DNA from: Myxococcota bacterium
GTDB lineage: Bacteria > Myxococcota_A > Polyangia > Palsa-1104 > JAEUJZ01
Length of the DNA: 64,000 nt
Assembly: GCA_025057315.1 (NCBI GenBank)
Contig: JANWXW010000147.1
Coordinates: 12,420-76,419, forward strand
Direction: 5' to 3'
The translations under genes were made by a program, and so were the position numbers. The notes below the pieces were generated by a model. The model did no database searches. It was not told the origin of the DNA and saw only the letters and a list, made by a program, of their open reading frames with translations. Below, piece after piece: positions 3,803 through 57,890 of the stretch (positions are counted from its first letter, which is position 1; every line of letters starts with the position of its first letter).

Positions 3803-5176
3803 ATGGTCCCCAGGGGCCGGTGGGGGCGGCTCGCGATGGGGGCTGCACCCTGGGCCAGCGCGCAGGGGCTGCCCCTTGCCCCTTGCTTGACGCTGCGCAG
3901 CCGCCAGTGGCAGCTTGCTGCCGTGCGTCTGTCCCGGCTGTTTCGCCACATTCGACCCTGGCCACCGGAGCAAGTCACCACCATCGCCCCCGGCGAGGTC
4001 GACCCGCGCGAGGCGGGCCTGCGCCGCGAGGACGTAGAGGCCATCTGGCGCGCTGTGGTGCACCTGTACCAGGGCGGCTTGCACCCGGCGGTGGCCCTGT
4101 GCCTGCGTCGCCGCGGCCTGGTGGTGCTCGACCGCGCCATCGGCCACGCCCGCGGCAACGCTCCGGACGACCCTCCCGACGCCGAGCGGGTGCTGGCCAC
4201 GCCCAACACCCTGTTCAATCTGTTTTCCGCCTCCAAGGCCGTGACCGCCATGATGATCCACCTGCTCGACGAGCGCGGGCTGGTGCATCTGGACGATCCG
4301 GTGGCTGAGTTCATCCCCGAGTTCGGGCGCCACGGCAAGGGCTGGATCACGCTCCGGCACCTGCTCACCCACCGCGCCGGCATCCCGGCCATGCCGCCCC
4401 ACGAGGATCCGCTGCGGCTGCTGGCCGAGCCCGACCGCCTCTTTGCCCTGCTGTGCGAGTGCACCCCGATCAAGCCCTTTGGCCGCCACCTGGGCTACCA
4501 TGCCGTCACCGGCGGCGCCATCCTGGGCGAGGTGGTGCGCCGCGTGACCGGAAAGGACCTGCGGGCCCTGTTGCACGAGTCGGTGCTCGCCCCGCTGGGC
4601 ATGCAGCACTTCAACTATGGCGTCCGCCCCGAGGAGGTCCACCTGGTGGCCCGCAACGCCGCCACCGGCCCCACAGCCCCACCCCCCTACTCGTGGATGC
4701 TCCGCCGCGCCCTGGGGGTGGATCTGGCCCGCGCCGTGGAGATCTCCAACCACCCGGCCTTTCTGACGGCGGTGGTGCCCTCGGGCAACATCATCGGCAC
4801 GGCCAACGAGGCCAGCCGCTTCTTTCAGCTGCTGCTCAACGACGGCTGCCTCGATGGCGTGCGCATCTTCGAGCGGCGCACCGTGCGCCGCGCCATTGCC
4901 GAGCAGACCTACCTGGAGGTGGACTCGATCATGGCCCTGCCGGTCCGCTACGGCATGGGCTTTATGCTCGGCCGCCGCCACCTGAGTCCCTTCGGGCCCG
5001 ACACGCCGCATGCCTTCGGCCACCTGGGCTTTACCGCCACCGTCGTGTATGCCGACCGCGAGCGGGACATCAGCGTGGCGCTGCTGACCAGCGGCAAGCC
5101 CTTCATCACGCCCGGGCAGCTGCGCTGGCTGGCGGTGCTGGAGACCATCGCCCGCCGCTGCAAGCAGGCCCGCTAG
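3803..5176 (+). CDS. serine hydrolase, beta-lactamase/PBP4-like family
   Basis: SxxK active-site motif (FSASKAV), YxN-like and HxG regions, ~450 aa. Divergent from the cupin gene. Exact start uncertain. Confidence 0.75.
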   Translation: MVPRGRWGRLAMGAAPWASAQGLPLAPCLTLRSRQWQLAAVRLSRLFRHIRPWPPEQVTTIAPGEVDPREAGLRREDVEAIWRAVVHLYQGGLHPAVALCLRRRGLVVLDRAIGHARGNAPDDPPDAERVLATPNTLFNLFSASKAVTAMMIHLLDERGLVHLDDPVAEFIPEFGRHGKGWITLRHLLTHRAGIPAMPPHEDPLRLLAEPDRLFALLCECTPIKPFGRHLGYHAVTGGAILGEVVRRVTGKDLRALLHESVLAPLGMQHFNYGVRPEEVHLVARNAATGPTAPPPYSWMLRRALGVDLARAVEISNHPAFLTAVVPSGNIIGTANEASRFFQLLLNDGCLDGVRIFERRTVRRAIAEQTYLEVDSIMALPVRYGMGFMLGRRHLSPFGPDTPHAFGHLGFTATVVYADRERDISVALLTSGKPFITPGQLRWLAVLETIARRCKQAR

Positions 5177-5332
5177 CCCCGCAGGCCTGCAGAGCCTCCA
5201 CGGATAGGGTCCGGACCCTCCCCCCCGGGGGACAGCAGCCTGGGGGGAATGGGTGCGCCGGCCCGCCCCGGGGCCTGGATCGGCTGCTCCCCGGGCCTTC
5301 AGAGCCCGCGGCAACGGCCCGATGTCCTGGGC

Positions 5333-6070
5333 ATGACCCTGACCGACCACGATGTGTACCGCTGCCTGGATGCCCTGGCTGCGGCCTCGGCGCCGCTGCC
5401 CGACATCGCGCTGCTGCCCGGCGAGCGCATGGCCCTGGCTGGATGCTGCTTCCGCCAGGGCTCGGACCTGGTGTACGCCGTGGCCGCGGCGCTGCGCGAG
5501 CAGCCCGAGCTGTTTGCCGACGTCTCGATCGATCCGGCCGAGCTGGTGGCGCGCTTTGAGCGGGGGGTGGCCTTTGGCTGCCTGGCCCAGCTGCTGGAGC
5601 AGCTGCTGCGCTGCGCGCGGGACGCCGAGCTGCTGGATCGGGGCACGGCGGTGCGGGATGCGCTGGCGGTGCTGGCGCAGGCGCGGGGCACGGCCCGGCT
5701 GCCCTTTGCTGCGGCCGAGCAGCAGCGGCGGCTGGACGCGCTGGCGCTGGCCGAGCAGGCGCTGCGCCGGCGGGTGGGACGAGCCTCGGCCCGCGGCGGA
5801 GCGAGCGGCAACCGGCGGCTCTCGCCCCAGGCCCGGTGCATGGCCGAGGCCCGGCGGGCCGCTGCGCGGGGGCAGGGACCGGAGGGGCTGCTGCCACCGC
5901 CGCGGCCGGTGCCAGCCGGGGAGAGCCAGCCCGCCAGGCCACCGGATGCGGCCGGGCCCGGGACCTGGACGCACCCCGCCCCGGAACCCCATTCCCCGGG
6001 GGAGCCCGGCCACCTCCCCCCCTGCGCCTCGGCCTCCGACGACCCCTGGACAGCCGGCGCAGCGGGCCTA
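5333..6070 (+). CDS. hypothetical protein. 3' end unresolved: the coding frame has no stop until 6475, and a TAG at 6069-6071 lies in the +1 frame.
   Basis: High GC3 coding signal runs from ATG 5333 (MTLTDHDVYRCLDALAAA) to about 6067. After that, third-position GC collapses in this frame, while the next gene (6126) shows strong coding signal in another frame. Confidence 0.45.
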
Positions 6071-6125
6071 GAGCAAGACAGCGAGGCAGCGCGCGCACCC
6101 CACGCGCGCACAGGAGGACAGGACC

Positions 6126-6785
6126 ATGTCGAGGCCCGAAGCAGCAAGCACCCTGGAGCCGGCCCAGGCCCTGGCCGCTCTGGCCGATCGAGAGACGCTG
6201 GCGCGACACAAGGCAGCCTTGGGGGCGATGCCCCGGCGCCTGGGTCTGGTGCGCCTGCGGCCGGCGGACCGCGCGGCGCTGGGGGTGACCTCCACGGCGG
6301 GCCAGCTGCGGCGGTCGCTGGCCTGCCTGCAGCTGCTGCAGGCCCGGCCCGAGCTGGCTGCGGCGCTGCCGGCCGGGATGGCCCAGGCGTGGGAGGAGGT
6401 GGTGGGGGCGCGGCTGCTGCTGGCCCAGCTGCGCCGCTGCCTGGAGCCGGTCCGGGCCGGGGCAGAGCGGGCTGAGCTGCTGCTGCGCGCCGCCATCACC
6501 GAGGACAACGACGCCATCGAGGACCACATGGCAGCCCAGATGGCCGGGGCGCCGCCTGAGGTGGCGCGGCGCCTGCGGGCCAAGTTCGAGGATCCCGGAC
6601 GGCTGCGTCAGCTGCTGCAAGAAAGTGCCGGGGCCCGGGCGCGGCGCCGGAGCCAGCGGGAGGCGGTCAAGGCCCGGGCGCGCGCCGAGGGCTGGCGCCT
6701 GGTGGCCCGCGAGCTGGGGGTGCAGCAGCTGCAGCAGGAGCCAGCCCCCGTGGGGCGGCCCGATGAGCGAAGGCGGACGCGATAA
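6126..6785 (+). CDS. hypothetical protein
   Basis: AGGAGG RBS 8 nt upstream of ATG 6126. Very high GC3 throughout. 219 aa, Ala/Leu/Arg-rich helical protein. Confidence 0.6.
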   Translation: MSRPEAASTLEPAQALAALADRETLARHKAALGAMPRRLGLVRLRPADRAALGVTSTAGQLRRSLACLQLLQARPELAAALPAGMAQAWEEVVGARLLLAQLRRCLEPVRAGAERAELLLRAAITEDNDAIEDHMAAQMAGAPPEVARRLRAKFEDPGRLRQLLQESAGARARRRSQREAVKARARAEGWRLVARELGVQQLQQEPAPVGRPDERRRTR

Positions 6786-6821
6786 CGAGGACGCGACAAC
6801 GAGGACGCCAAGGAGGACGCG
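6779..6821 (+). repeat. three imperfect tandem copies of a 12-14-nt unit (GCGATAACGAGGAC / GCGACAACGAGGAC / GCCAAGGAGGAC) spanning a stop codon and an RBS
   Basis: Read directly from the sequence. The last unit provides the AGGAGG for the 6822 gene. Confidence 0.6.
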
Positions 6822-7562
6822 ATGAAGATCAAGACCACCACCTGCCGGGGTGGCTCGGCCAGCCGCCGCGCCCGCCGGGCCAGGGTGCACGGACCGGCTC
6901 GGCTGGACCTGGCCCACATCCGCGCCTGCATCGGCGAGCTGGCGACAGCGCCCAGCCGGCTGGGACTGGAGGCGCTGTGCCAGGACGACGGCCCGGAGGT
7001 GGAGGCGGTGCTGGACCCAGATGCCCTGCCGGTGGCCCGGGCCTACCTGCGCGCGCTGGCCGGGGACCCGGACGCCACACCCCAGGTGGCAGCGATCGCC
7101 CGGCGCCTGGCCGCCCGCCTGGGACAGCAGCACGAGCTGGCCGGGATCTGCGCTGCCCTGGAGCAGCTGGACCGCGACGCGGCAGACACCGACCGGGAGC
7201 TGGGCCGGCGAGAGCAGGATATGCTCGCCACCCTGGACCGGGTGCTGGGCGGGCTGCTGGACGGAACGCTGGGGAGCCTGAGCCCGGTGGAGCGGGACCA
7301 GCTGCGCGTGGAGGCCGCCGAGGTGCTGGAGCTGCAGGCGGAGCAGCGGGCGCAGCGGGAGCAGGAGCGGCGCCTGACGATCGAGGCCGGACGGGAGGCA
7401 GAGACCCTGCGCCGGGAGGCCGCCCAGGAGGCCGAGATGCTGCGCACCCAGGCCGCGCTGCGGGCCGGACGTCGCGTGGACGAGGAGGCGCTGGACCGGG
7501 CCCTGGCGACCTTCGAGCGGCTCCGGGCGGCACGGACGGGGCCACCCCCCGCCCCGCTGTGA
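6822..7562 (+). CDS. hypothetical protein (coiled-coil, Glu/Arg-rich C-terminus)
   Basis: AGGAGG RBS formed by the last unit of a 3x tandem repeat. 246 aa. Co-oriented with 5333 and 6126 (possible operon). Confidence 0.6.
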   Translation: MKIKTTTCRGGSASRRARRARVHGPARLDLAHIRACIGELATAPSRLGLEALCQDDGPEVEAVLDPDALPVARAYLRALAGDPDATPQVAAIARRLAARLGQQHELAGICAALEQLDRDAADTDRELGRREQDMLATLDRVLGGLLDGTLGSLSPVERDQLRVEAAEVLELQAEQRAQREQERRLTIEAGREAETLRREAAQEAEMLRTQAALRAGRRVDEEALDRALATFERLRAARTGPPPAPL

Positions 7563-7580
7563 GCGCGGCCGCGGCGGCCG

Positions 7581-9152
7581 CTACCCCGCGGAGTCCAGCT
7601 GCGGCACCAGCTCCACCCGATGCAGCAGCTGGCCCTCTAGCCCGCGGTGGCTGACGGTCATGATGCCCGTGCGCCCATCGATGTGCACGTGCCCAAAGTG
7701 CAGGTAGCCGGCGCTCGGCGGCAGGTTGGGCTGCGGCGGACACCGCTGGTAGAGCAGCTGCGGGCCAAAGGTGGCATCGAGCTGGTTGGGGCCAAAGGGG
7801 CCGGCATGCAGCGGGCCAGAGACGAACTCGTAGAACGGGTCAAAGTCGGAAAAGCGGGCCCGACCCGGATCGAAGCGGTGGGTGGCGGCGTAGTGGACAT
7901 CTGCGGTCAGCCACACGACGTTGTAGATGCGGTGGCGGCGGAGGAAGCTGAGCAGCTCGGCGATCTCCAGCTCGCGGCCCAGCGCCTCGGGGTCGCCCTG
8001 GGCCACGCCGTCCACCGCGGTGGCGCGCCAGCCGTCGTCGGCCACGACCAGGCCCAGGGACATGTCCGCGGCAATTACCTTCCACAGCGCCGTCGAGGTG
8101 CGGAGCTGCTGCTTGAGCCACTCGGCCTGGGCCGCCCCCAGGATGCGCGCCTGCGGGGTCAGCACGCGCTGGCGCCCCGGGGAGTTGGGCCCCCGGAAGC
8201 TGCGCAGGTCGACCAGAAACAGGTCCAGCAGCGGCCCGCGGTGAAAGACCCGATGGATGCACGGGCGGTCGGGTGGCTGGGGCGTCAGGGGCGTAAACTC
8301 GGCAAAGGCCTGCCGCGCCCGCGGCACGAGCACCTCGCAGCGCCGCTCGGTGCGGCGCGGGTCGTCCAGGACGCGGCCCGGATACCAGTTGTTGCTGACC
8401 TCGTGGTCATCCCACTGCACATACTGCGGCACCTCGGCGCAAAAGCGGCGCAGGTGCTCGTCCATGAGGTTGTAGCGATAACAGCCGCGGAAGTCCTCCA
8501 GGGTCTGGGCCGGACGGCTCTTTTCCTCGGTGACCAGGTTGCGCCACAGACCCCCGCCCGGCAGCGGCACCTGGCGCTGCAGCGGGATGTCGGCATAGAT
8601 GAGATCGCCGCTGTGGATGAAAAAGTCCGGCTGCAGCCGGCGCATGGACTCGTAGATCTTCAGGCCGCCGAAGTCGGGGTTGATGCCCCAGCCCTGGCCC
8701 ACGGTGTCGCCAGACCAGAGGAAGCTCACGCTGCGTCGGTCGCGGGCCGGGGTGCGCAGCCGTCCGTACACCGGGTCGCTCACCGGGCGCCCGGTGTGGG
8801 GGTCGAGGAAGCGGACCTCGTAGAACACCTCCTGGCCTGGGGGCAGGCCGGTGAGCACGAGCTTGGCCGTGCCGCCGCTGGCCGGGGTGGCCAGGGGGCC
8901 GAGCCGGCGCTGGGCATCTCTGAGCCGCTCGTTGGTCGCGTAGCGGACGGCCATCTGGGCGGTCCGGTCGCATGCGCTCCACAGCACGGCGCTGTCATAG
9001 GTGACATCGCCTGCCTGCACCCCCAGGGGCACCCCGCGCGCGGCCGGGGCTCCCAGCAGCCGCCCGGCCCAGGGCGGCACCAGCAGACAGCACCCGGTGT
9101 AGGCCAGGCCGGAGACGAACCGGCGGCGACCGGCATCGATGCAGCTAGACAT
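7581..9152 (-). CDS. phoD: PhoD-family alkaline phosphatase/phosphodiesterase with Tat signal
   Basis: Twin-arginine motif at the N-terminus (GRRRFVSGLAYTG). PhoD-like metallophosphatase motifs (SGDLIYAD, WDDHEV, GDVHY). 523 aa. Confidence 0.8.
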   Translation of the reverse strand: MSSCIDAGRRRFVSGLAYTGCCLLVPPWAGRLLGAPAARGVPLGVQAGDVTYDSAVLWSACDRTAQMAVRYATNERLRDAQRRLGPLATPASGGTAKLVLTGLPPGQEVFYEVRFLDPHTGRPVSDPVYGRLRTPARDRRSVSFLWSGDTVGQGWGINPDFGGLKIYESMRRLQPDFFIHSGDLIYADIPLQRQVPLPGGGLWRNLVTEEKSRPAQTLEDFRGCYRYNLMDEHLRRFCAEVPQYVQWDDHEVSNNWYPGRVLDDPRRTERRCEVLVPRARQAFAEFTPLTPQPPDRPCIHRVFHRGPLLDLFLVDLRSFRGPNSPGRQRVLTPQARILGAAQAEWLKQQLRTSTALWKVIAADMSLGLVVADDGWRATAVDGVAQGDPEALGRELEIAELLSFLRRHRIYNVVWLTADVHYAATHRFDPGRARFSDFDPFYEFVSGPLHAGPFGPNQLDATFGPQLLYQRCPPQPNLPPSAGYLHFGHVHIDGRTGIMTVSHRGLEGQLLHRVELVPQLDSAG

Positions 9153-9158
9153 CCTACC

Positions 9159-10359
9159 CTATAGTGTAGCGCGTCTAGCCGCCAGCTCATCCAGCCGCTG
9201 CGCCACGGCGCGCGGGCTGAGGGTGCCCTTGTAGACATACAGGGCCGCCGGCAGGTGGTCGGGCAGGGCCTCCTGGCTGACGCGCAGCCGGCTGCTGAGG
9301 CAGAACAGCACCGGCTCGCGCAGCCCGCGCTCCACCAGCTCGATCCGCCGCCACACCGCCTCGCGGCTCCAGTAGCCGAGCACCTCCAGGTGGATGCGGG
9401 GCCCGTCCGGGCGCTCAAAGAGCAGGTCGGGCACGCACACGCCCACCCCGGGCAGGTGGAGCAAGGCCGGGGCCAGCTGGACCTGCCACGGGGTGCCCAG
9501 CGCGGGGAAGGCGCGCAGCAAGGCCTCCACCTCCTGGGGCAGCGGTGCCTCGGGCTGGTCCGCACCGGGGCCCTGTCCCTGGACGTGCAGCTGCAACGGC
9601 TGCCGCTCCTTGCCCCAGCGCACCTGGGCCGTCAGGCAGAAGCGATCGCAGGCCAGCAGCGCGGGCAGCGCCAGGGCCAGCTGGAGGCCATAGCGGGTCA
9701 CCGAATCGAACAAGCTGTAGGGGCCGTCCAGCTCGATGCGGTAGGCGCCGTCCTGGGCGGGGTGGATGCGAAACAGCAGGCGCAAAAACTTCAGCCAGCG
9801 GAACAGCTGGCGGTAGGTGGCGGCGCGGGCGCACTCGACCTCGACCACCACGCGCACGGCGCGCAGCAGCACGGCCTGCACCTGCGCCAGGTCGTAGCTG
9901 TCCACCAGGGCCTCGGCGGTCAGCGGCTCTAGGTCCACCAGCACGTGGGCCTCCCGCAGGTCGGCATACAGGCTGCGTAGCAGCGCCGCCGGATCCAGAC
10001 CGTGGGAGGCGGCCACCTCGGCCAGGATCTGCTCGCGGTCGAAGACGCCCTGCTGCCGTGCCGCCGCCGCGCGCAGAAACACCTCGCTGCGCAGCCTCTC
10101 GGGCGAGGGCCCCTGGGCTACGTCGAACCGACAGCGGTCCTCGATGAGCTTGCGCAGCCCCTCGGCCAAGCGCTGCTCGCGCGGGGCATACGCGACCTGG
10201 CCCAGCGCCTCCTGCAGCTCCTGACGGGTGCGGCCCAGGTGGGCGCGGGTGATCTCCAGGTAGGCCGCGGCCAGCTCCAGGGCACGGGCGCGCAGACGGG
10301 CATCCAGCGGCAGCACGTGCAGCTGGCCCGCCCGTCGATCCACCCGCACGCGCACCAGC

Positions 10360-10373
<14 letters not shown>
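9159..10373 (-). CDS. DUF790 / Bax1-like endonuclease (XPB-associated nuclease family)
   Basis: 404 aa, TTG start overlapping the XPB stop by 14 nt. The C-terminal region (LEVLGYWSREAV) resembles the Bax1 nuclease core. It is a partner of the adjacent XPB-like helicase. Confidence 0.5.
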
Positions 10374-11729
<1,356 letters not shown>

Positions 11730-11777
11730 TCTCAGAGGGGGGCGGGACCAGCGCGTGGTCTTTGCCGGCGCTTGTAG

Positions 11778-11889
11778 CAGAAGCGGGCCGCCGCCGCCAG
11801 GCCATCAGAGCGGGATCGACCCGCTGCGGGGCGCTGTGCACCTCCATCTTGATCGCCGAAGCGGGCCGCCGCCAGGCCATCAGAGCGGG
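11778..11889. repeat. two copies of a ~35-45-nt imperfect direct repeat (GAAGCGGGCCGCCGCC[GCC]AGGCCATCAGAGCGGG) with a 77-nt period. The second copy contains the stop codon of the GspE-like gene.
   Basis: Read directly from the sequence. Also visible as the duplicated LMAWRRPASA in the shadow ORF. Confidence 0.6.
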
Positions 11890-13616
11890 CAGGCGGCGCG
11901 GACCTCGCCCAGGTCGGTCAGGCCCTCTAGGGCCTTGGCGATGCCGTCCTGGCGCAGGGTGCGCATGCCGTCCTGACAGGCCTGGGCGTGCAGCTCGTTG
12001 ACTGGGGCGCGCCCCCGCAGCAGCCGGCGCAGCGCCGGGCTGCCCTGCAACAGCTCGTGCAGCGCCAGGCGCCCCTGAAAGCCGCTCCCCTGGCAGATCT
12101 CGCAGCCCACCGGGCGGTACAGGGGCGCATCCGGTGCCACGCCCAGCTCGGCCAGGCCAGGCTCGCCGTACTCGGCGGCCAGGGCCCGCCACTCCGCCTG
12201 CTGCAGCTCGTAGGGCTGCAGGCACGCCTCGCACAGCTTGCGCACCAGGCGCTGGGCCAGCACGCCGAGCAGCGCAGTGCCTAGGTGGTCGGGATCGCCC
12301 CCCAGCTCCAGCAGGACCTGCAGCGCCTCGGCCGCCCCGTGCGCGCGCAGCCCGGCCAGCACCAGATGCCCGCTCAAGGCTGCCTCCAGGGCCGCCCCAC
12401 AGGCCTGCCGGTCGCGCAGCTCGCCGATCATGATCACGTCGGGATCGGCCCGCAGCAGGCCGCGCACCGCGGCCGGCACGTCCAGGCCCGGCTGCAGCGA
12501 CACCTGGCGCAGTCCGGGCTGGACCCGCTCCACCGGGTCCTCGACGGTGCCAATCATCCGGTCGGGGCGATTGAGGTGGTTCAGGGCCGCATGCAGCGTG
12601 GTGGTGCGCCCTGAGCGGGGCGGACCCGCAACGAGCAGCAGCCCCCAGGGCCGCTCCAGCAGCTGCTGCAGGCCCACCAGGTTGCGCTCAGAGAACCGAA
12701 GCTGCTCCAAGGTCGGCGGCTGGCCGCCGGGCAGCACATGCAGCACCACGTCCTGCAGGCCGCCGTGCAGCGGCACGGTGGCCACCCGCAGCACGATGTC
12801 GCTGCCACCCTCGCGGCGGATGCGCAGCATCCCCTGGCGAGGCAGCGTCTCGTCCTGGGGCTCCAGGCTGCTCAGGCTCTTGATGCAGGACAGCATCGGC
12901 GGGTGGTACTCGGCGGGCAGGGTGCGGAACGGCCGCAGCCGACCATCCAGACGCAGGCGGACCTGAACCGGCCCCTGCTCGGCCGAAGGCTCGATGTGGA
13001 TGTCGGTGGCGCCGCGCTCGCAGGCCTCGCCGAGCAGGCCCGCCACCAGCGCGACCACCTGGTCCTCGTCCGGGGGCGGCTCGCGCACCTCCTCGATGAC
13101 CACCTCCACCGAGGGCTCCTCGGGCACCGGCTCGGTCGCCGGGGTGGCCGCCGGCGGGCTGGCCGCGGTCCCGTAGAGGTGCCCGTAGAAATGATCGATG
13201 AAGGCCTCGATGTCCTCGCGCAGGCCCACGCAGTACTCAATCTGCATCCCGGGCAGCAGCGCGCGCACCTCATCGCGCTTGATAAGGTGGTTGGGGTCAT
13301 CGATGAGCACCGTCACCCCATGGTCATGGGCCTTGATGGGCACCCAGCGATCCGTGCGCAGGTAGCCGGGCTTGAGGCTGCGCAGCACCGCCCGCGGCGG
13401 CGGCAGGCGGGGGTCAAAGGGAACATAGGGGCAGCCGTAGTAGTGGGCCAGCGCCGCGCCGATGTGGGCCTTGGGCACCCGGAAGCGCCGCATCAGGACC
13501 TGCTCGACGTCCAGCTGGAGCTCCTGGGCCTCGGCAGCGGCTTGGAGCAGATCCGCCTCGTTGATCAGCCCCTGCTCGATGAGCAGGTCGAACTTGGTGC
13601 GGATGCTCGCGGTCAT
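11880..13616 (-). CDS. GspE/PilB-family secretion-type ATPase homologue with degenerate nucleotide-binding motifs
   Basis: N-terminal GspII_E_N-like domain. Walker A reads GPPRSGRTT instead of the usual GPTGSGKTT. Asp box DPDVIMIGELRD is intact. His box is degraded (LAGLRAHG). Tetracysteine motif present (CEAC...CEIC). Confidence 0.8.
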   Translation of the reverse strand: MTASIRTKFDLLIEQGLINEADLLQAAAEAQELQLDVEQVLMRRFRVPKAHIGAALAHYYGCPYVPFDPRLPPPRAVLRSLKPGYLRTDRWVPIKAHDHGVTVLIDDPNHLIKRDEVRALLPGMQIEYCVGLREDIEAFIDHFYGHLYGTAASPPAATPATEPVPEEPSVEVVIEEVREPPPDEDQVVALVAGLLGEACERGATDIHIEPSAEQGPVQVRLRLDGRLRPFRTLPAEYHPPMLSCIKSLSSLEPQDETLPRQGMLRIRREGGSDIVLRVATVPLHGGLQDVVLHVLPGGQPPTLEQLRFSERNLVGLQQLLERPWGLLLVAGPPRSGRTTTLHAALNHLNRPDRMIGTVEDPVERVQPGLRQVSLQPGLDVPAAVRGLLRADPDVIMIGELRDRQACGAALEAALSGHLVLAGLRAHGAAEALQVLLELGGDPDHLGTALLGVLAQRLVRKLCEACLQPYELQQAEWRALAAEYGEPGLAELGVAPDAPLYRPVGCEICQGSGFQGRLALHELLQGSPALRRLLRGRAPVNELHAQACQDGMRTLRQDGIAKALEGLTDLGEVRAACPL

Positions 13617-13655
13617 GGGTCCCTGGGCAGCCCTGGGGCTCGAGGCAGCCGGGTG

Positions 13656-15158
13656 TCATTGTAACGCGGTTTGCGGGCGGTCGGTGGGCCCGATGACGGG
13701 AGCTGAGGGAGGCCGAGGGTCTTGGAGGGCGGCCGCCGCAGCACCGCCCCTGGGCGATGAACCATGGGGGCGGGCCTCCTGCTGGAGCGGGCCGTAGACG
13801 TAGACGCCGCGCTGCTGGCCCAGCAGCTGGTAGCGGGCGCGCGCCACGGCGAGGACCTCGGGCAGGAACCGCTCGTCGTGGCCGCCGCCGGGCGGCTCCT
13901 CCAGCGGGAAGTGCAGCACCAGGCGCTCGATCTGGCCGGCCCTCAGCGCCCGCAGCAGGGGCGAGGGATCCCACTGTCCCCGGCGCGCCAGGTTGGTGGC
14001 GAGGAAGGGCACGACCACCGGCGGCCGGCCCAGCGCGGTGGTGTACCAGGTGGACTCGGCCAGCACCGGACCCGAGCGGCCCTGCAGCTGGGCGCGGGTG
14101 TAGGCCATCTGCTGGCGTACCCCGGGCAGGCGCACCAGGGCCAAGTAGGCCGCCCCCCCGACGGCCATGCAGCAGGTGACCAGCAGGTGCAGCAGCACCG
14201 CACGCCGCCACCAGCAGCCTGCCATGGCGATGGTAAGATGCAGGCACATCGCCGTCAGCAGCTCCATCGTGTGGTTGGAGCCCGAGCCGCACCGGCCCAG
14301 CACCAGCGTCCAGGGCAGGCCCACCAGCAGCGCGCCGGCAAAGGGCCCGAGCACCTGCCGGGTGTGCGCCGGCAGCTGGGCCCAGCGACCTAGCAGCCGC
14401 ACGGCCACCGCGAGCCCGGCCCCCCAGGGCAGCACGAAGCGGGCGCACTGGCTCAGAAAGAACAGCGGGCTCCAGTCCGCCATCGTCCACAGGACCAGGG
14501 GGGCGAACAGGCCCTGGCGCCACAGGAGCCACCCGACCAGGCCCGCGGTGCCCAGGGCCAGCACCAGGCCCTGCCGGGGGGCCCGCCGCAGCGCCCAGGC
14601 CAGGGTGCCCAGCGGCAGGACCACCAGGCTGTGCTTCATCATGACCGCGGCCACAAAGGCCACCGGCGCCAGCAGGGGCCAGCCGCGCACCCGCAGCGCC
14701 ACCAGGGTGATGCCGCCCAGGCCCAGGGCCAGAGCGGGCGCATCGGGCAGGCAGGTGGCCGCATGGTAGGAGACAAACAGCGTGCCGCCCAGCAGCAGGG
14801 CCGCCACCCAGCCGAGCAGGCGCGAGCCGGTGGCGGCATGGGCACAGGCACCCAGCAGGGCCATGGCCAGCACAAAGCCGGCCAGGGACACCACCCCACC
14901 GGTGCGCACGATCTCGCTGTCCGAGGGGGCGAGCGCTGCCACCAGGTGTAGAAACAGGGGCGGATAGTTGGACTGCCACAGGGGCAGGCCGGTCGGCTCA
15001 GTGTATAGATTATAGCCTCGGCGGAGCAGCCAGATCCAGGTGGCGGTGTCTCCCTCGGCATAGCTGAGCGGCACCCGGCCGCCCAGGGTGATCAGCCACA
15101 GCAGGGCACAGGCGAGGAAGCTGGCGACGATAAGGGCAAGGTGAAACCGGGGCACCAT
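13656..15158 (-). CDS. polytopic membrane protein, GT-C-type glycosyltransferase-like (DUF2029/GT87-like)
   Basis: Start ATG 15158 (MVPRFHL). More than 10 predicted TM helices. YPPLF loop motif after TM1. Large C-terminal soluble domain. Confidence 0.5.
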   Translation of the reverse strand: MVPRFHLALIVASFLACALLWLITLGGRVPLSYAEGDTATWIWLLRRGYNLYTEPTGLPLWQSNYPPLFLHLVAALAPSDSEIVRTGGVVSLAGFVLAMALLGACAHAATGSRLLGWVAALLLGGTLFVSYHAATCLPDAPALALGLGGITLVALRVRGWPLLAPVAFVAAVMMKHSLVVLPLGTLAWALRRAPRQGLVLALGTAGLVGWLLWRQGLFAPLVLWTMADWSPLFFLSQCARFVLPWGAGLAVAVRLLGRWAQLPAHTRQVLGPFAGALLVGLPWTLVLGRCGSGSNHTMELLTAMCLHLTIAMAGCWWRRAVLLHLLVTCCMAVGGAAYLALVRLPGVRQQMAYTRAQLQGRSGPVLAESTWYTTALGRPPVVVPFLATNLARRGQWDPSPLLRALRAGQIERLVLHFPLEEPPGGGHDERFLPEVLAVARARYQLLGQQRGVYVYGPLQQEARPHGSSPRGGAAAAALQDPRPPSAPVIGPTDRPQTALQ

Positions 15159-15447
15159 GGGTTGCGCGTGCGGTTGGCAGGCAGGGCGCAGCTGGGGCCC
15201 GTGCCCATGCCGCAGGAGCAGCAGCTGACATCGCGTGCCGGACCACGTGGGGGGCTTGCTACGCATCGAGCGGGGCCGTCGGCGGCCATGCGCGCCAAGA
15301 AGCAAGATGCCAAGGAGCAAGATGCGTACCCGGAGCAGGTTGCGGCCCTGCCTCGAGGGGCCAGCGGGGGGCGCTGTCGAGTTTTCACCGCTGCAGACGG
15401 GGGCTGTGGACGTGCCGGGCCGGGGTCGGGCTTGCTAAGATGGCCCG

Positions 15448-16842
15448 ATGCGGGTTCGGCTGCGCGGGGCGGGCCCTCTGCTCCGACCGTTCTTTGCCAT
15501 CTTGATCACGTGTGGGCTGCTGGCCTGGTTCTGCAGCCGCGACGAGGAGGCCAGGCGGGCGATGCTGCGCGTGCGCGACACGGCGTCGCTGGTGCGCGAG
15601 GCGCCGACGCTGCTGTGGCCGCCGTGGCGGGCGCTGCGGCTCTACGTCTCGATCGACGACGACGTGAGCCTCTACTATGAGCTGTCGCGGGTGGTGTTGG
15701 GGGAGGCGGCGGACGCCGAGCAGATGCTGCGGTTTGACCACCGGCCGGATCCGGCCGAGGTGGCGGCGCTGCGGGCGCGGCTGGCCCAGGCGCGCGGCAG
15801 GCGGTGGCCGACGGGCCTGCAGCTGGGCTTCCCGCCGCTGTCGGTCCTGCTGATGGTGCTGCCGCGGCTGGCCGTGGACACGCTTGGGGCGTACCGGGTG
15901 GCGTTTGCGGTCCTGCTGGCCCTGCTGTACCTGGGGGCGTGGGGGGTGGCCGTGGCGGGGGCGGCAGGCCTGCCCCGGCGGGTGCTGTTGGGACGGATGG
16001 CGCTGGTGACGGCCTGCATGGGGCCGGTGCTGGTTGCCCGGCTGGATGTGCTGCCCGCGCTGCTGGTCGTCGCGGCGCTGGGGGCGCTGGCGCGGGGGTG
16101 GGCGCTGGCAGCGGGGCTGCTGCTGGTGCTGGGGGGGGCGGCCAAGCTCTACCCGTTGTTTTTGCTGCCGGTGTGGGCGGCGCTGCTGTGGGGCTGGGGG
16201 GGGGCGGCGCGCCGCCAGGCGGTGGCGCTGCTCGGTGGGCCGGCACTGCTCGGCGGGCTGGGCCTGCTGCTCGGCGGGCTGCCAGCGCTGGGGGAGCACC
16301 TGCGGCTGTTTGCCCGGCGGCCGGTGCAGATCGAGTCGGTGGTCGGGGCCGTGCTGCACGCTGCGGGCTGGCCGAGCGACTATGGGTTTGGCTCCAACAA
16401 CCTGCTGCTGCCCCCGTGGGTGCCCATGGCGCTGGACGGTCTGCTGGGGGGGGCGGTGCTGGCCCTGGCGGCCGGGGCAGGGCGGTGGGCGGCGCGGCAC
16501 CGCGATGGAGCGGCGCGGCGGCAGGCGCTAACCTGGTTTGCGGTGGCGACGGTGCTGGTGGTCATCACGACGAGCAAGGTGCTGTCGCCCCAGTATCTTG
16601 TCTGGCTGGTGCCGCCGGCGGCGATGCTGCCAGGCAGGGCCGGGCGCCTGGTGCTGCTGGGGGTGTGCGCGGCGATGTTGCTGACGCAGGTCTACGTGCC
16701 CTTTATGTACAGCTGGCTGATGGAGCGGCGGTGGCCGCTGCTGCTGCTGGTGCTGGTGCGCAACGGCCTGCTTGTGGGGCTGGCCGCGGGGGTGCTGGGC
16801 GTCCTGGTTCGCTCAGGGCGCCGGGACGAGGCCCTCGCGTAG
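15448..16842 (+). CDS. polytopic membrane protein, DUF2029/GT87-like glycosyltransferase
   Basis: 464 aa, multi-TM. AKLYPLFLLP motif. Paralogous architecture to 13656..15158, divergently transcribed. Confidence 0.5.
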   Translation: MRVRLRGAGPLLRPFFAILITCGLLAWFCSRDEEARRAMLRVRDTASLVREAPTLLWPPWRALRLYVSIDDDVSLYYELSRVVLGEAADAEQMLRFDHRPDPAEVAALRARLAQARGRRWPTGLQLGFPPLSVLLMVLPRLAVDTLGAYRVAFAVLLALLYLGAWGVAVAGAAGLPRRVLLGRMALVTACMGPVLVARLDVLPALLVVAALGALARGWALAAGLLLVLGGAAKLYPLFLLPVWAALLWGWGGAARRQAVALLGGPALLGGLGLLLGGLPALGEHLRLFARRPVQIESVVGAVLHAAGWPSDYGFGSNNLLLPPWVPMALDGLLGGAVLALAAGAGRWAARHRDGAARRQALTWFAVATVLVVITTSKVLSPQYLVWLVPPAAMLPGRAGRLVLLGVCAAMLLTQVYVPFMYSWLMERRWPLLLLVLVRNGLLVGLAAGVLGVLVRSGRRDEALA

Positions 16843-17979
16843 CAGAAACGCCGCCAGGCGCTGGGCCACCAGGTCGGCGGCAAAGGGGGTATGGTGGCAG
16901 TGGTCGTAGAAGAGGGGCCGGTGGGGAGCCTGCTGCCAGGCAGCGCGCAGGGCGGGCAGCAGGTCCTCGTGGGGCAGGTGGTGGCGGGTCATGAGGTCGC
17001 GGAAACGGCGCTGGGGCTCGTTGTGCACCTGGTGCGCCTCGACCTGATGGCGCACCGGCAACAAGGCTGCGGCGAGGCGGAAGCCGTGCTGGCGGCCGGC
17101 TTGCTCGATGCGTCCGAGCGCCGCCTCGATGCGCTGCCAGGCCGCCGGGGACCAGGCCGCCCCCCAGTCGCGCGCCTGGCGGACGATGAGGGCGTCGAAG
17201 GCCTCCGGATCGGTGCGCCAGTTGCCGGGGCGGAGCTGACGGCCGCGGGCAAACTCGTGCACCCAGGCCTGTCCCTCGGCGCGCAGCTCGGCCCAGTGGG
17301 TCCACTCGAACCACAGGCGCTGGGCGCTCTGGTAGACCAGGCCTGCCAGGTAGCTCTTGCCGAGCCAGCCAGACAGGGAGCGGGGGCGCATGCGCAGGGA
17401 CGGATAGCCGTCGTTCAGGTACATGGCCACCAGGACCAGGTCGGGCTGCATGGCCAGGCCGGCGTCGCGCAGGATGGCATACTCGGTCTCTGTGTCTGCG
17501 CTGCCGATGCCCAGGTTGATGACGCGGACCCGGCGCCCGCTGGCCTGCAGCAGCCGCTCCAGCCGGAAGGCGAAGGTTTCCTCGTCGGGCAGGTAGTCGG
17601 CCAGGGTAATGGAGTCGCCCAGAAGCAGCACGCGGAACTCGCCGGGCGGCTTGGGTCCTACCTCGGGCCCGCGGTAGCCGGCCGAGTTGGTGGTGAAGGT
17701 GATGTCCCGGCCAGAGACGAAGTGATGGCGGATGCGGATGCGCGCGCGCGGCACCAGGCCCACCGAGCCGGTGCGGCTGTAGCGGTAGGCCTCGTTGCCG
17801 AAGGCGTGTTGCTCCAGCTGGCGCGGGCCGGTGGCGGCCTGCAGGGAGTCCACCACGACCATCTGCGACTGGCCCAGACGGCGACAGAGCCACTCGCCCA
17901 GGCCTGTCAGGAGCAGCACCGTGACCAGCAGCAGGGCCAGGTTGGGCAGCAGCCTGCGCAGAAGGGGGGGCAGGCCCAT
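16813..17979 (-). CDS. SGNH/GDSL-family hydrolase (esterase/acyltransferase-like)
   Basis: Start ATG 17979 (MGLPPLL, N-terminal TM). GDS block VLLLGDSITLADY. Later DxxH-like region. Convergent 30-nt overlap with 15448..16842. Confidence 0.7.
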   Translation of the reverse strand: MGLPPLLRRLLPNLALLLVTVLLLTGLGEWLCRRLGQSQMVVVDSLQAATGPRQLEQHAFGNEAYRYSRTGSVGLVPRARIRIRHHFVSGRDITFTTNSAGYRGPEVGPKPPGEFRVLLLGDSITLADYLPDEETFAFRLERLLQASGRRVRVINLGIGSADTETEYAILRDAGLAMQPDLVLVAMYLNDGYPSLRMRPRSLSGWLGKSYLAGLVYQSAQRLWFEWTHWAELRAEGQAWVHEFARGRQLRPGNWRTDPEAFDALIVRQARDWGAAWSPAAWQRIEAALGRIEQAGRQHGFRLAAALLPVRHQVEAHQVHNEPQRRFRDLMTRHHLPHEDLLPALRAAWQQAPHRPLFYDHCHHTPFAADLVAQRLAAFLLREGLVPAP

Positions 17980-54101: not shown

Positions 54102-57100
54102 TCAGGGAGACAGGGGAATCACGGCCGCGCTCTCCTCGGCGGCATCGACCTGGCGAGCGTAGGCCACAAACTCGTCGTATTCAGCCGGCTCAACCCGCCG
54201 GGCGGGCAGGAAAAACTCGACATGGAGGCGCAGCGTGCTGCCCTCCAGCACCACTTGCTGGCAGAAGCGACCGAAGGTCGACAGGCGAACCTCGGGCCCT
54301 GCCCGCACTGGGCCCACGCCCCGGGGGAGCTCGACGCGTGCCTCCAGCACTACGGGCACGACGTAGCCAAGTTGGAGGGGAGAGCGGCGCGTCGGGACAC
54401 CCACATACCTTTTGGCCAGCAGCGCGGGAAAGGGCGCCGGCAGGACCAGCTCGGTCCGTCCCTGGGCCATGCGGCGCCGCGCCAGCCGGGGCGCACGGAA
54501 GGCGTACTCGACGACAAGCGGCGCGTCGTCCTCCCGCGGGCCATGGCGCAGCTGCTCCAGTGTGGCCCCCGGAAAGAAAAAGCCCAGCAAGCGCTGCTCC
54601 ACCTCCTTGTGGAACTGGTCGGCAGAGAGGCGGTCCAGTCCCTCTCGCCACTCCAGGGCCGGCCAGCCCGTGAGCCGCTCGCGCACCTGGACCTCCCCGC
54701 CCCCGTCCAGCCCCAGGCGCATGGTCATTTCAATCTGGCGACCGTCCCGCGGGATCGACAGCCCCGGCACCAGGCCGCCACCCTCCTCGGGCAGTGCCAC
54801 CTTGCCCAGCAGCGCAGCGGGTGGTCTGCTCTGCCCCAGCTGGCCGATGCGCAGGGCCGTGCCGCCACGCAGCAAGGGCCGCACCAGTCCCGTCGGAGCA
54901 TGACGGTACGCGGGATCCAGCCACAGGAGGGGATGGCCATCCGGGCCCTGGCCCGGCGCCACGGCAAGCAGCACCTCGCTGTACAGCTCGGTGGGAGGCA
55001 ACGGTCCGTCCAGACGGGGCGCGGTCACGGGACGTACGAGCCACAGCTCGACGGGAATCCCGGCCAGACGCAGCAGCGCCGCGGTCAGCAGGTGAGCGTT
55101 GCCTTCGCGCCGTGCCAGGATCGACGTTGCTGCCTCGTCCATGTCGCCGCCTGGCTTGATGGCGCGCCGCACCCAAGCGTCGATGCGTCGGACCTGCGAC
55201 ACCACACCGGCGATCCCCGTCGGTCCCACGGGACCAATGGCCTCGGCAGCAGCACGGCGCAGCTCGGCGTTGGCGCGCAGGCTCAGAAACCACCGGTCGC
55301 GCAGATAGTCGCGCCAGCCCTGGAGCGTCACGCCAGAGGCCACCCGCACAGACGGGACCCACTCTGCCAGCAGCGCCTCCGCCTGGGGCAGGTCAAGCTG
55401 AAGCCGCGGCACGCCCCGACGTGCCCAAAGGCTATGGCGCAGGTCTCCGTGTCGCTCCACCTGAGCCTGGGGTGGATCGGGCCCGCGCAGGTCGATCTGC
55501 AGCGGCATCTCCCAGGGCGTCACCAGCAGGTACTCGGTCCGGTCGAGCGCCGCATCCACCGAGGCAAAATAAAAGCGCTCGGCGAGGAACCCACCGCCGA
55601 AGGCTGCAGCTGGCTCCTCGCGGTCGATGTACTCGAACTCGACGTAGTCGCCGGCTTCTAGATCGGGTGCCGAGATGCTGTCCTTGTCTGCAAATTCCTC
55701 GGGCTCGCGGGTGGTGCCATCGGCCTTCACCGTGCGCAGGGTCAGCACCTCGGCCCCCTCAGGGAGCCGCACCTCGCCGAATCGGTCGATGCCGTCCTTG
55801 GACAGCACATGCACGATGTTGTGCGTGAGCGTCCATCGCGTCCCGTCGGGAAAGACACGGACCACCGTGCGATCGAGGACGATGACGGCGGCATCCTGCG
55901 GTGCCGTCGCCGAGCGCCGCTGGTGGTACTGTTGGATGACCTCCTGCCCGTCGATGCGGTATGCTTCCATAGGCGGTGGCACACCGAGCACCTGCAGGGC
56001 CCGATGGAGATCCTGGGATGCAGGGGCATCAGCCAAGCCCGCCCGCAGCACCGCCTCTGCCTCCTGGGATCGGCCCTGGTCGAGCAGAACATTGGCGAGG
56101 TGGACACGGTAGCCAGGGGTGGAGGGCGAACGACCGACCAGGCGCCGCAGGCACCGCTCGGCTGCAGCCAGCTCCCGCCGGGCCACGAGCACCTCGACCA
56201 ACGATACCAGAAGAGCCTCGTCATCTGGCCGGAGGCGGAGCAGACGCTCGTATTCGGCGCGCGCCTCGACGAGCCGGCCCGCGGCGCGCAGCTCCTCGGC
56301 GTATCGCTCGGTGTAAGGGTTGCATGCTGCCAGCTGGCGCGCTGCCTGCAGCGCGCCGCGTTCGTCTTTGATATCCCGGCGCGCTTCGATGCGTGCCTCC
56401 CAGGTCTCGCACGCCGATGGGGCCAGGGCCAGCGCCTCGTCCAGGGCCTGCTCTGCCTCCAGCGTCCAACCCCGTGACCGCAAGATGTGGTGTCGCAGGA
56501 GCAGCGCTTGCCAGGCCCGTTGCTGGCTGGCCGGTCTTGCATCGAGAATCTCGAGCGCCAGCTCGTCGTGATCGTCGTCGTGCTCCAGACGAGCGAGCTG
56601 GATGCGCGCCCGCAGCAGGGCGGGGTCGGCCTCCAGGGTGGCGCCCAGCAGGCGGCGGATCTGATCGCGTACGATGCGGGCCGGGCGACTGCTGTCCTCG
56701 GCAAGCAGGGCCGCCTCCAGCAGGCGCAGGGAGCTCAGGCCCGGTGCACCAGCGCGCTCGGCAGCGCTCAGACCTGCCTCGATGGCTCCCCGGATGTAGG
56801 CCTGCTGCGTCTGGAGCAGGGCGTGCGTGATCACCTCAGCTCGCTGGCGCGGCCTGGGCAGGGCCGACAGCTCCCTGGGCCACACCTGCACGGGGCCGGT
56901 GCTGGCAGCCGGCGCCCGCTCTGGCGGACCATCAAAAAAGCGCGCACCTGGCAGCGACAGCTGCAACCGCGCCCGGCCCCAGGGCATAGAGACCTTGAAG
57001 GCCAGGGCATGCCAGCCACGGGGCGCTCGGATCCACAGCATTCGCCGGCGCTCGGGCTCGGTGTCTACATACCGGATCACCCCGTCCACCGACAGGGCCC

Positions 57101-57890
57101 ACGTCTCGTTTCCGGTCTCTACCGTCAGGGGGAGGGCGCCTCCCGGGAACCAGGTCCAGGCCACGGCATAGACGACACCCCGGCGGCCGAGCGGTCCCTG
57201 CAGCGTCAGCTCGCAGCCGCGGACCTGGTGCCGCACATACCGGATGCGGGACGGGTCACGAGCCGGATCGTCCGGGGCAAAATGCCGCATGAGGTCCACC
57301 CGTGGCAGGTGTCCGTGCGGGCCGGTGCTAAATAGCACCTGTGGGCAGCCGCGGGCAGCATCCACGGCCTCGGCCTCCGCCTCGCGTCGGGCCAGCCGCA
57401 GCAGCTGCGCCGCAAGGGCCGCAAGCAGCTGTCGCGCTTCGATCGGCAGGTGAGATGAACGCCGCCACAGCCGCAGGACGCGCTCCAGATGGTCTCGTTC
57501 TTCGGCTGCCGAGCCGGGCGGCTCGCTGACCAGGGCCAATAGCCGGTGGGCGGCCATCTCCGCCGCGGCAGGTGCCCACGGATCAGCAGCACGGACGCTC
57601 TCCAGCAGACGCAGCCACCCCTGTCGGGCTAGGGCCACCTGCGCGGTATCGTGCGCCCGCAGCGCCAGACCCAGCAGGGTGCGGGCGTCCCGCAGGCCCA
57701 GAGACTCGGCCTGTCGCAGCGCTTCCTCACCAGCCTCTGGTTTGCCCAGAGAAAACTGAATCCAGCCGGCGTCTCGTAGCTCGGCGGGCGAGCCGGCATG
57801 GCGCGAGCCCTGCGGCGCCCGGTCCCTGAGCGACACCGCGGCGCAGCCGCACAGGAACAGAAGAAGCAGGCCCAGGCCGGCTCTACTCAT
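54102..57890 (-). CDS. giant TPR-repeat lipoprotein with DUF3857-like, transglutaminase-like (catalytic Cys lost) and DUF3858-like domains
   Basis: Start ATG 57890 (MSRAGLGLLLLFLCGC), 8-nt overlap with the upstream paralogue. The TGase-core position reads ARREGNAHLLTAALL instead of GDCKDKA. Confidence 0.65.
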   Translation of the reverse strand: MSRAGLGLLLLFLCGCAAVSLRDRAPQGSRHAGSPAELRDAGWIQFSLGKPEAGEEALRQAESLGLRDARTLLGLALRAHDTAQVALARQGWLRLLESVRAADPWAPAAAEMAAHRLLALVSEPPGSAAEERDHLERVLRLWRRSSHLPIEARQLLAALAAQLLRLARREAEAEAVDAARGCPQVLFSTGPHGHLPRVDLMRHFAPDDPARDPSRIRYVRHQVRGCELTLQGPLGRRGVVYAVAWTWFPGGALPLTVETGNETWALSVDGVIRYVDTEPERRRMLWIRAPRGWHALAFKVSMPWGRARLQLSLPGARFFDGPPERAPAASTGPVQVWPRELSALPRPRQRAEVITHALLQTQQAYIRGAIEAGLSAAERAGAPGLSSLRLLEAALLAEDSSRPARIVRDQIRRLLGATLEADPALLRARIQLARLEHDDDHDELALEILDARPASQQRAWQALLLRHHILRSRGWTLEAEQALDEALALAPSACETWEARIEARRDIKDERGALQAARQLAACNPYTERYAEELRAAGRLVEARAEYERLLRLRPDDEALLVSLVEVLVARRELAAAERCLRRLVGRSPSTPGYRVHLANVLLDQGRSQEAEAVLRAGLADAPASQDLHRALQVLGVPPPMEAYRIDGQEVIQQYHQRRSATAPQDAAVIVLDRTVVRVFPDGTRWTLTHNIVHVLSKDGIDRFGEVRLPEGAEVLTLRTVKADGTTREPEEFADKDSISAPDLEAGDYVEFEYIDREEPAAAFGGGFLAERFYFASVDAALDRTEYLLVTPWEMPLQIDLRGPDPPQAQVERHGDLRHSLWARRGVPRLQLDLPQAEALLAEWVPSVRVASGVTLQGWRDYLRDRWFLSLRANAELRRAAAEAIGPVGPTGIAGVVSQVRRIDAWVRRAIKPGGDMDEAATSILARREGNAHLLTAALLRLAGIPVELWLVRPVTAPRLDGPLPPTELYSEVLLAVAPGQGPDGHPLLWLDPAYRHAPTGLVRPLLRGGTALRIGQLGQSRPPAALLGKVALPEEGGGLVPGLSIPRDGRQIEMTMRLGLDGGGEVQVRERLTGWPALEWREGLDRLSADQFHKEVEQRLLGFFFPGATLEQLRHGPREDDAPLVVEYAFRAPRLARRRMAQGRTELVLPAPFPALLAKRYVGVPTRRSPLQLGYVVPVVLEARVELPRGVGPVRAGPEVRLSTFGRFCQQVVLEGSTLRLHVEFFLPARRVEPAEYDEFVAYARQVDAAEESAAVIPLSP

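Follow-up and report, generated by a model that had tools for sequence, protein, structure and literature searches.

The 64,000-nt stretch of DNA analysed here (positions 12,420 to 76,419 of contig JANWXW010000147.1, assembly GCA_025057315.1 of a Myxococcota bacterium; hereafter the window) carries a complete gene for a 578-aa protein, P0001, which is related to the PilB/GspE ATPases. The gene occupies 11880..13616 of the minus strand, on which all of its features described below are also located, and was delineated from the open reading frame (ORF) together with Pfam matches to T2SSE and MshEN. An identical protein is on record as a GspE/PulE family protein of a Myxococcota metagenome-assembled genome (MAG). 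Judged by its residues, P0001 is a rare pseudoenzyme derivative of the PilB/GspE ATPases, and in all probability it does not work as a motor ATPase. The reading favoured here, with somewhat better than even confidence, is that of a folded, selectively maintained and catalytically dead PilB/GspE derivative that serves as a non-motor regulator or adaptor. The chemistry of the power stroke appears to be gone, whilst the fold, the zinc site, the arginines R456/R459 and, above all, the N-terminal N1 domain are kept, which makes a non-motor subunit the most likely role.

The overall architecture of P0001 is that of a typical member of these ATPases. Pfam recognises an MshEN domain (PF05157) at aa 60–146, scoring 47.2 bits (cut-off, 23.1), and a T2SSE domain (PF00437) at aa 183–572, with 265 bits. 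The former lies within an N1 domain of GSPII/MshEN type that spans aa 1–146 (13179..13616), is modelled with a predicted local distance difference test score (pLDDT) of ~95, and constitutes the very start of the protein, there being no GAF or TPR sensor domain ahead of it. This is followed by a disordered, poorly conserved linker rich in Pro, Glu and Ala (aa 147–182, 13071..13178; pLDDT <50 at 149–178), and then by an N2 domain (N2D) harbouring the arginine-finger positions (aa 183–300, 12717..13070), as delimited by alignment to PilF, PilB and GspE structures. The AlphaFold2 (AF2) model of the protein has a mean pLDDT of 90 and is confident except for linker residues 149–178, with its best Foldseek match being T. 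thermophilus PilF (5oiu_B; template-modelling (TM) score of 0.93, root-mean-square deviation of 2.3 Å). Pfam, AF2 and Foldseek accordingly all display the T2SSE fold, comprising N2D, the C-terminal domain (CTD) and an N-terminal GSPII-type domain. A preliminary description of this DNA, made from the sequence alone, had considered the N-terminal domain to be intact, which the confident model supports; the alignment to PilB/GspE structures that it proposed has been performed, and P0001 matches the solved PilF, PilB and GspE structures from end to end. The reading frame contains a single stop, compared with 3–13 in the other frames, and the GC content at the three codon positions is 0.80/0.46/0.92; the difference between the second (GC2, 0.46) and third (GC3, 0.92) positions indicates that coding periodicity is maintained.

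Scores against NCBIfam equivalog models are, however, only about half of their cut-offs (324.6 vs 675.65 for PilB, TIGR02538; 321.4 vs 630.25 for GspE, TIGR02533). Pfam analysis of the ~37 large ORFs in the 64-kb window identified no pil or gsp genes, nor any other component of a type II secretion system (T2SS) or type IV pilus (T4P), including the PilC/GspF platform, pilins or pseudopilins, and the secretin, in keeping with what the preliminary description had reported for the immediate surroundings. With such scores and no such genes, P0001 seems not to act as a local machine's motor.

Within the nucleotide-binding site, the P-loop segment LVAGPPRSGRTTTL (aa 327–340, window 12597–12638) contains a degenerate Walker A motif, GPPRSGRTT (12600..12626), which by alignment to the family harbours the changes T333P, G334R and K337R. 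The preliminary description had placed this motif correctly, to within a few bases, at 12598–12642. Amongst the 120 best database matches, 115 have the family motif GPTGSGKTT (and LHTN in the His box), and the general pattern GxxGxGK[ST] is broken in P0001 at both Lys337 and Gly334, each of which is replaced by Arg. The second of these P-loop changes, which the preliminary description did not emphasise, affects a glycine that is invariant across the family. As R337 is encoded by CGC, which is three substitutions away from either of the Lys codons, it is not a single-base error.

The His box is similarly rewritten. In place of the family sequence GHLV(L/F)STLHTNS, P0001 carries GHLVLAGLRAHG (12336..12371), the core of which, LAGLRAHG, is as first described; H417 is kept, but H424R, S421A, T422G, T425A and N426H have all occurred, such that only one remains of the two histidines that correspond to H413 and H420 of G. 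metallireducens PilB. In that protein the gamma-phosphate is touched by H420 and by the arginine finger R286, whilst T327 and T411 make an inter-chain contact that the His box sandwiches; Mg is coordinated by E357 of the Asp box, R257 forms a salt bridge to the Asp-box Glu, and E395 serves as catalytic glutamate (McCallum 2017, PMC5424180). Of these residues, H420, E357 and E395 were placed on P0001 by motif identity, and T327, T411 and R286 (positions 333, 415 and 293 of P0001, respectively) by family alignment and numbering offset. The first arginine finger, R277 (equivalent to R271 of G. metallireducens PilB, likewise by family alignment and numbering offset; role taken from PMC5424180), is retained at 12786..12788, whereas the second, at position 293 (equivalent to R286; 12738..12740), is His in P0001 and Gln or His in its two closest relatives; N2D thus holds only one of its two fingers. 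Arginine is found at this position in 100% of 166 canonical relatives and in none of the three members of the clade described below. Also altered is the family-invariant RLPQDGK, which reads TLPRQGM in P0001 (R257T, Q260R, D261Q and K263M; 12828..12848), where K263 is matched to R257 of G. metallireducens PilB solely by numbering offset. Neither of these last two losses featured in the preliminary description. Its suggestion that a Lys-to-Arg change would still allow nucleotide binding is doubtful for P0001, given that Gly334 is also Arg and that two to three phosphate-contacting basic residues of the N2 domain are lost.

Other elements of the site are conserved. The Asp box TVEDPVE (aa 357–363, 12528..12548) retains E363, the equivalent of E357 in G. 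metallireducens PilB, and the atypical Walker B motif with its catalytic Glu, E399, is present as DPDVIMIGELRD (12411..12446). The preliminary description was right that the Asp box is retained; the sequence to which it had given that label is DPDVIMIGELRD, and hence the Walker B and catalytic Glu region, which is retained as well. Both CxxC pairs of the family-invariant tetracysteine zinc site that characterises the PilB/GspE clade are in place, as had been noted (C462/C465 at 12222..12233; C505/C508 at 12093..12104), and so are R456 and R459, the arginines of the QRLxR motif downstream of the His box.

Only two proteins stand close to P0001, namely P0002 (53% identity) and P0007 (51%), both from metagenomes, and the next sequences after them belong to a large family at 40–46%. 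The three form a clade with pairwise identities of 51–55%, and it is their comparison that carries the case for inactivation. Using 150 alignment columns that are ≥97% invariant among the 166 canonical relatives, P0001 keeps 106, P0002 108 and P0007 119. Losses common to all three members comprise S421, T422, H424, T425 and N426 of the His box, together with T333, T415 and R293. On alignment, the shared losses are non-random, and the gamma-phosphate-sensing, inter-subunit network is missing from the entire clade. To this each lineage adds private losses: K337R, G334R, R257T and K263M in P0001; catalytic Glu399 to Asp, H417R and R277Q in P0002; and K263T and T339M in P0007. Different private losses of catalytic residues on top of a shared loss imply that catalysis has not been selected since the clade ancestor, and the pattern is the signature expected if selection for catalysis ceased in that ancestor, with the remaining catalytic residues then drifting independently.

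The Walker A lysine is present in both relatives (GPAGAGKTT and GPEGSGKTM). Its replacement by Arg is therefore private to the P0001 lineage, and is, by this reconstruction, a later step than an inactivation that is older and clade-wide. The preliminary description had treated this substitution as the key event, and had itself named a canonical GK(T) in orthologues as evidence to the contrary, which is what P0002 and P0007 display. Its conclusion that P0001 is a pseudo-ATPase does stand, albeit on broader grounds than the lysine: the His-box His, the arginine finger at position 293 and the T333/T415 pair are gone from the whole clade. Because these losses are cumulative and clade-wide, the conclusion is stronger than one drawn from Lys-to-Arg alone, which would be a late symptom of inactivation and not its cause.

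The clade is very small. A profile built from its three sequences and run against 5.8 billion clusters recovered no additional member, the score dropping from 1019 to 759 bits. When 1.84 billion representatives were scanned exhaustively with HMMER, P0001 was the sole representative of its group (1091 bits, with the next sequence at 620), and two scans of GTDB genomes and one of JGI metagenomes yielded no additional clade members. All of these searches together gave only P0002, P0007 and a fragment, P0211.

With regard to where constraint persists, identity between canonical pairs is highest in the CTD core (0.74), followed by N2D (0.58) and N1 (0.37±0.04). Within the clade this order is changed: N1 is the best conserved part at 0.59–0.66, with values of 0.38–0.54 for N2D and 0.56–0.61 for the CTD core. 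The conservation of N1 is more than 5 standard deviations (SD) above expectation from canonical pairs of equal overall divergence. By this measure, constraint in the clade is displaced from the catalytic core to the N1 interaction domain.

As to origin, the nearest canonical relatives of P0001 (e.g. P0003, P0008 and P0391; 40–46% identity at 99% coverage) have a GAF domain, or sometimes TPR, fused to MshEN–T2SSE, and this large and apparently uncharacterised family of orphan PilB-like proteins is the closest canonical one to P0001 over its full 578 aa. P0001 descends from this orphan GAF–MshEN–T2SSE branch, with the GAF domain having been lost. The N1 signatures of the family, DDPNHLIKRD and EDIxxFID, also occur in P0001, and neither the family nor P0001 is encoded with pilus machinery. 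The family differs in possessing GAF/TPR, a fully canonical active site and, in Myxococcales, a module of Che proteins and two Ser/Thr protein kinases (STPK), none of which applies to P0001. Its members lie outside pilus operons, with one following two PilT-like genes, and another following PilZ-FHA, AAA_22 and a sigma-54 activator. The Myxococcales example P0391 (L013, 1–18298; GCA_022184915.1) is flanked on one side by a divergent PatA_N-REC/CheW/MCP/hybrid-CheA cluster and on the other by two Ser/Thr kinases of ~900 aa; no PatA_N-REC/CheW/MCP/CheA and Ser/Thr-kinase neighbourhood surrounds the window gene, as judged by Pfam analysis of the window ORFs. PATAN-domain response regulators have been reported, in a preprint on Synechocystis, to bind the PilB motor (bioRxiv 10.1101/2021.06.11.447907).

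When all retrieved ATPase domains were aligned with a hidden Markov model (HMM) and their catalytic columns read, ~17 full-length proteins with broken catalytic sites were found, a frequency that is biased upward by a search profile made from degenerate sequences. Most of these are nearest to different canonical sequences, indicating that inactivation has been repeated and independent. A stable example is the P0276 family, which consists of 16 clusters at 74–80% identity, all without the Walker A Lys and with GPPGAG(T/A/V)TT and AAM(R/H)(T/S)RGAPE conserved. In three metagenomes (L010 and L011, around 4650–17200, and a third contig) it occurs in a Che/kinase locus of the P0391 type, and the stop of its gene overlaps the start of the kinase gene that lies downstream. 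Judged by this arrangement, an ATPase seems to have been turned in place into a pseudo-ATPase inside a signalling module.

P0001 and the P0276 family have much in common. Proteins of the latter are ~565 aa, lack GAF, begin their P-loop with GPP, have lost the Lys, carry H424R in most clusters and have small residues at 421–422; with the window clade as a whole they share the absence of GAF, the GPP start, H424R and a GA(A/P)E tail, and the two fall in the same region of a neighbour-joining (NJ) tree, alongside P0193. They differ in that the P0276 family keeps the position-293 Arg and Gly334, has its Lys replaced by Thr, Ala or Val and not by Arg, and has a strictly conserved Che/STPK neighbourhood, with identity to P0001 being only 40%. 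NJ bootstrap for exclusive common ancestry of the clade and the P0276 family is 0%, or 4% with P0193 added, with long branches being a concern, and P0001 is accordingly not placed within that family. P0193 itself (L012, 708–3101) bears a GAF domain and has kept its core intact, its His box, LHCAGAEEA, having drifted halfway. The Ser/Thr kinase gene that precedes it (2–721) overlaps its start, making P0193 the third case of kinase linkage in this protein family. Separately, P0170, P0182, P0196, P0201, P0202, P0256 and P0171 are proteins of ~1000 aa with two tandem T2SSE domains, the second of which has a Walker B of NP(N/D)I and a His box reading 'HAN'; the first T2SSE domain of P0171 is without the Walker A lysine (GPTGSGTTT).

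Comparison with described systems provides both a structural and a functional point of reference. P0001 resembles PilB/PilF (T. thermophilus PilF, 5OIU/6F8L; G. metallireducens PilB, 5TSG/5TSH) in its N1, N2D and CTD architecture, and in possessing the tetracysteine zinc site, the Asp box, the Walker B with catalytic Glu and the first arginine finger. It differs in its identity of only 34–38%, in having lost the Walker A Lys and Gly, the gamma-phosphate His and the second arginine finger, and in having no pilC, pilM–Q or pilin genes near it in the window. The functional parallel is the Walker A mutant K327A of M. xanthus PilB, which does not assemble pili, yet still signals, from a point upstream of the Dif chemosensory pathway, for the production of exopolysaccharide (EPS) (Black et al. 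2017, PMC5544727); the apo form has been proposed as the signalling state of this protein (PMC5544727; review PMC11656802). Here too a myxobacterial PilB-type protein in a nucleotide-free or Walker-A-dead form is concerned, with a regulatory output that is independent of pili, and it follows that a PilB that does not hydrolyse ATP can have a function. K327A is, however, an engineered mutant of a true pilus motor, whilst P0001 is a natural and far more diverged paralogue with many extra losses.

In the scheme suggested by these comparisons, the clade ancestor lost the gamma-phosphate network, i.e. the His-box His, the arginine finger at position 293 and the T333/T415 contact, after which the P0001 lineage lost the Walker A Lys and the P-loop Gly, both to Arg, and the RLPQDGK motif. 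The resulting protein would bind partners via N1 and/or its hexamer surface as a regulator or adaptor. It may mimic the nucleotide-free signalling state of M. xanthus PilB, or co-assemble or compete with an active paralogue whose gene lies at another place in the genome. The role of scaffold or regulator put forward in the preliminary description remains plausible in this respect, and draws indirect strength from the shift in conservation towards N1 and from the signalling context of the relatives. A more specific version, in which P0001 is a natural 'apo-locked' hexameric pseudo-ATPase, fixed in the nucleotide-free signalling conformation that is only transient in M. xanthus PilB, and its strongly conserved N1 switches on a downstream pathway without any pilus, possibly that of the adjacent glycan/polysaccharide-modification cluster, is distinctly unlikely. 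Were it to hold, P0001 and the P0276 family together would make PilB-like pseudo-ATPases a recurrent and previously unrecognised signalling class in Myxococcota.

PilB/GspE ATPases are otherwise treated as obligate motors, with engineered M. xanthus PilB mutants being the sole hint of a signalling role, and the literature consulted contains nothing specific on naturally inactive PilB paralogues or on the GAF-PilB/Che/STPK module, including the position occupied by P0391 and the P0276 family. If the favoured reading is correct, natural and maintained dead PilB-like proteins would mean that this fold has been used repeatedly by evolution as a non-motor regulator, as exemplified by the three-member clade, by the other degenerate representatives that each stand beside a different canonical sequence, and by the P0276 family in its Che/Ser-Thr-kinase module. 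Such proteins would also be ready-made 'locked' states in which to study how signalling conformations are read out. Furthermore, annotation of a MAG protein as 'GspE/PulE family' does not allow a functioning T2SS or T4P to be concluded. The recurrent natural inactivation within a signalling-associated PilB-like family is, in this sense, a more promising lead than P0001 itself.

A number of observations weigh against a maintained regulator, and most of them would equally suit a decaying relic, that is, a redundant paralogue freed from selection and heading for pseudogenisation, whose motifs have been damaged at random and whose product serves no purpose. Clade members are 67–73% identical at family-invariant columns and 36–39% at variable ones, a difference that in itself speaks for continued selection. 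Canonical pairs of equal overall identity nonetheless display ~99% and 6–20%, respectively; constraint in the clade is thus clearly relaxed, with a much flatter conservation gradient and far weaker conservation at formerly invariant sites than in canonical proteins, and ~21–29% of the family-invariant positions have been lost. The nominal dN/dS within the clade is 0.62–0.74, although this is an upper bound and uninformative, as a GC3 of 0.92–0.97 makes synonymous sites approximately two-state, compresses dS (pS of 0.38–0.44, near its ceiling) and so leads to overestimation. Both this ratio and the weak constraint would also fit a gene that is on its way to being lost. With only three sequences amongst 5.8 billion clusters, the extremely rare lineage could also be a short-lived one, and the window has nothing in common in its synteny with the contigs of the relatives (L001 and L002, 2.0–2.3 kb). 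Nor does an intact ORF carry much weight by itself, since long open frames arise easily at 69–76% GC, there being 27 stop-free stretches of ≥500 aa in the window. A relic is nevertheless unlikely. Three lineages that have diverged to 51–55% identity are all full length and align end to end, with no frameshift and with in-frame indels only; their losses cluster on the gamma-phosphate network, sparing the zinc cysteines, the Asp box, the Walker B motif and R456/R459; and the excess conservation of N1, the contrast between GC2 and GC3, the overestimated dN/dS and the confident AF2 model all speak for a protein that is still under selection.

The retention of E363, E399, T338 and R277 means that some residual activity of P0001 is conceivable, and taken further, this would make it an active, unconventional NTPase in which R337 replaces the Walker A Lys and R424 the His-box His, with ATP or another nucleotide being hydrolysed with altered kinetics. 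Consistent with this, P0001 keeps T338 and E363, which coordinate Mg, together with the catalytic E399, the arginine finger R277 and H417, and the change of H424 to a basic Arg in P0001, P0002 and most of the P0276 family could be compensatory. Against it stand the bulky Arg at the invariant Gly334, the loss of the position-293 arginine finger, R257 and K263, and the fact that in the clade relatives it is the catalytic Glu or other residues that have gone, such that catalysis is not what is conserved. Moreover, Lys-to-Arg changes in P-loops abolish or greatly slow hydrolysis, as in RecA K72R, and an active NTPase is accordingly improbable. A further alternative would have P0001 as the dedicated partner of the adjoining polytopic membrane protein and glycan cluster, docking on the former as PilB does on PilC and regulating glycan or polysaccharide modification. 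The gene for this membrane protein (13656..15320, minus strand) is upstream, co-directional and without a family match, and stops 39 bp before the ATPase start, with an AGGGA Shine–Dalgarno-like element ahead of the ATPase gene and no terminator-like site found between the two, albeit that promoter and terminator scans are uninformative in such GC-rich DNA; co-transcription is therefore possible. A glycan-type cluster follows further upstream at 13.6–28.5 kb (SGNH hydrolase, carbamoyltransferase, GT4, radical SAM, MMPL and polysaccharide deacetylase), and M. xanthus PilB regulates EPS. This linkage is not conserved, however, as P0002 has an unrelated gene upstream of it and none of the fetched loci contains a homologue of the membrane protein. 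The protein has no Pfam or PDB match and no similarity to PilC/GspF, displaying only a sub-threshold mannosyltransferase hint, and the co-directional run continues downstream of the ATPase gene into an unrelated XPB-type helicase, DUF790 and PhoD. Such a partnership is improbable.

The MshEN assignment of N1 had raised the possibility, in the preliminary description, of cyclic di-GMP (c-di-GMP) binding. The canonical 24-residue MshEN binding motif, RLGxx(L/V/I)(L/V/I)xxG(L/V/I)(L/V/I)xxxxLxxxLxxQ, was sought as a regular expression and was found in none of the three clade members and in 1 of 169 family members. The expression matched a PilF segment to which a leading 'RLG' had been added by hand, which is a check of the expression and not an authentic positive control. 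Alignment of MshE (5HTL) to P0001 gave an E-value of only 0.73. The identity of a canonical c-di-GMP receptor was thus rejected, the MshEN domain being present but its binding motif absent from both the clade and, with the single exception above, the parent family.

Elsewhere in the window, the region 13656–16842 encodes two divergent polytopic membrane proteins (~510–554 aa and 464 aa), neither of which has a Pfam, NCBIfam or PDB match, and both with only sub-threshold mannosyltransferase hints; the pair borders the glycan-type cluster described above. On the other side of the ATPase gene, 9159–11727 (minus strand) contains the XPB-type helicase (XPB_DRD, ResIII and an ERCC3 C-terminal domain) and then the DUF790 (Bax1-like) protein. 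The helicase matches PADLOC PbeA models with an E-value of 3.7e-52; PADLOC gives no match for P0001, and a defence-system role for the ATPase was rejected. The 150-bp spacer between the ATPase and helicase genes harbours a direct repeat of ~38 nt (11777–11814 and 11855–11889; CCCGCTCTGATGGCCTGGCGGCGG..CCCGCTTC, minus strand), one copy of which overlaps the ATPase stop and encodes its last residues. Lastly, 54105–61965 (minus strand) carries two neighbouring paralogues of ~1355 aa with TPR and DUF3857, the second also having transglutaminase-core and DUF3858 domains, and adjoining these at 61752–63998 is a protein in which a Ser/Thr kinase is joined with an FGE-sulfatase domain.

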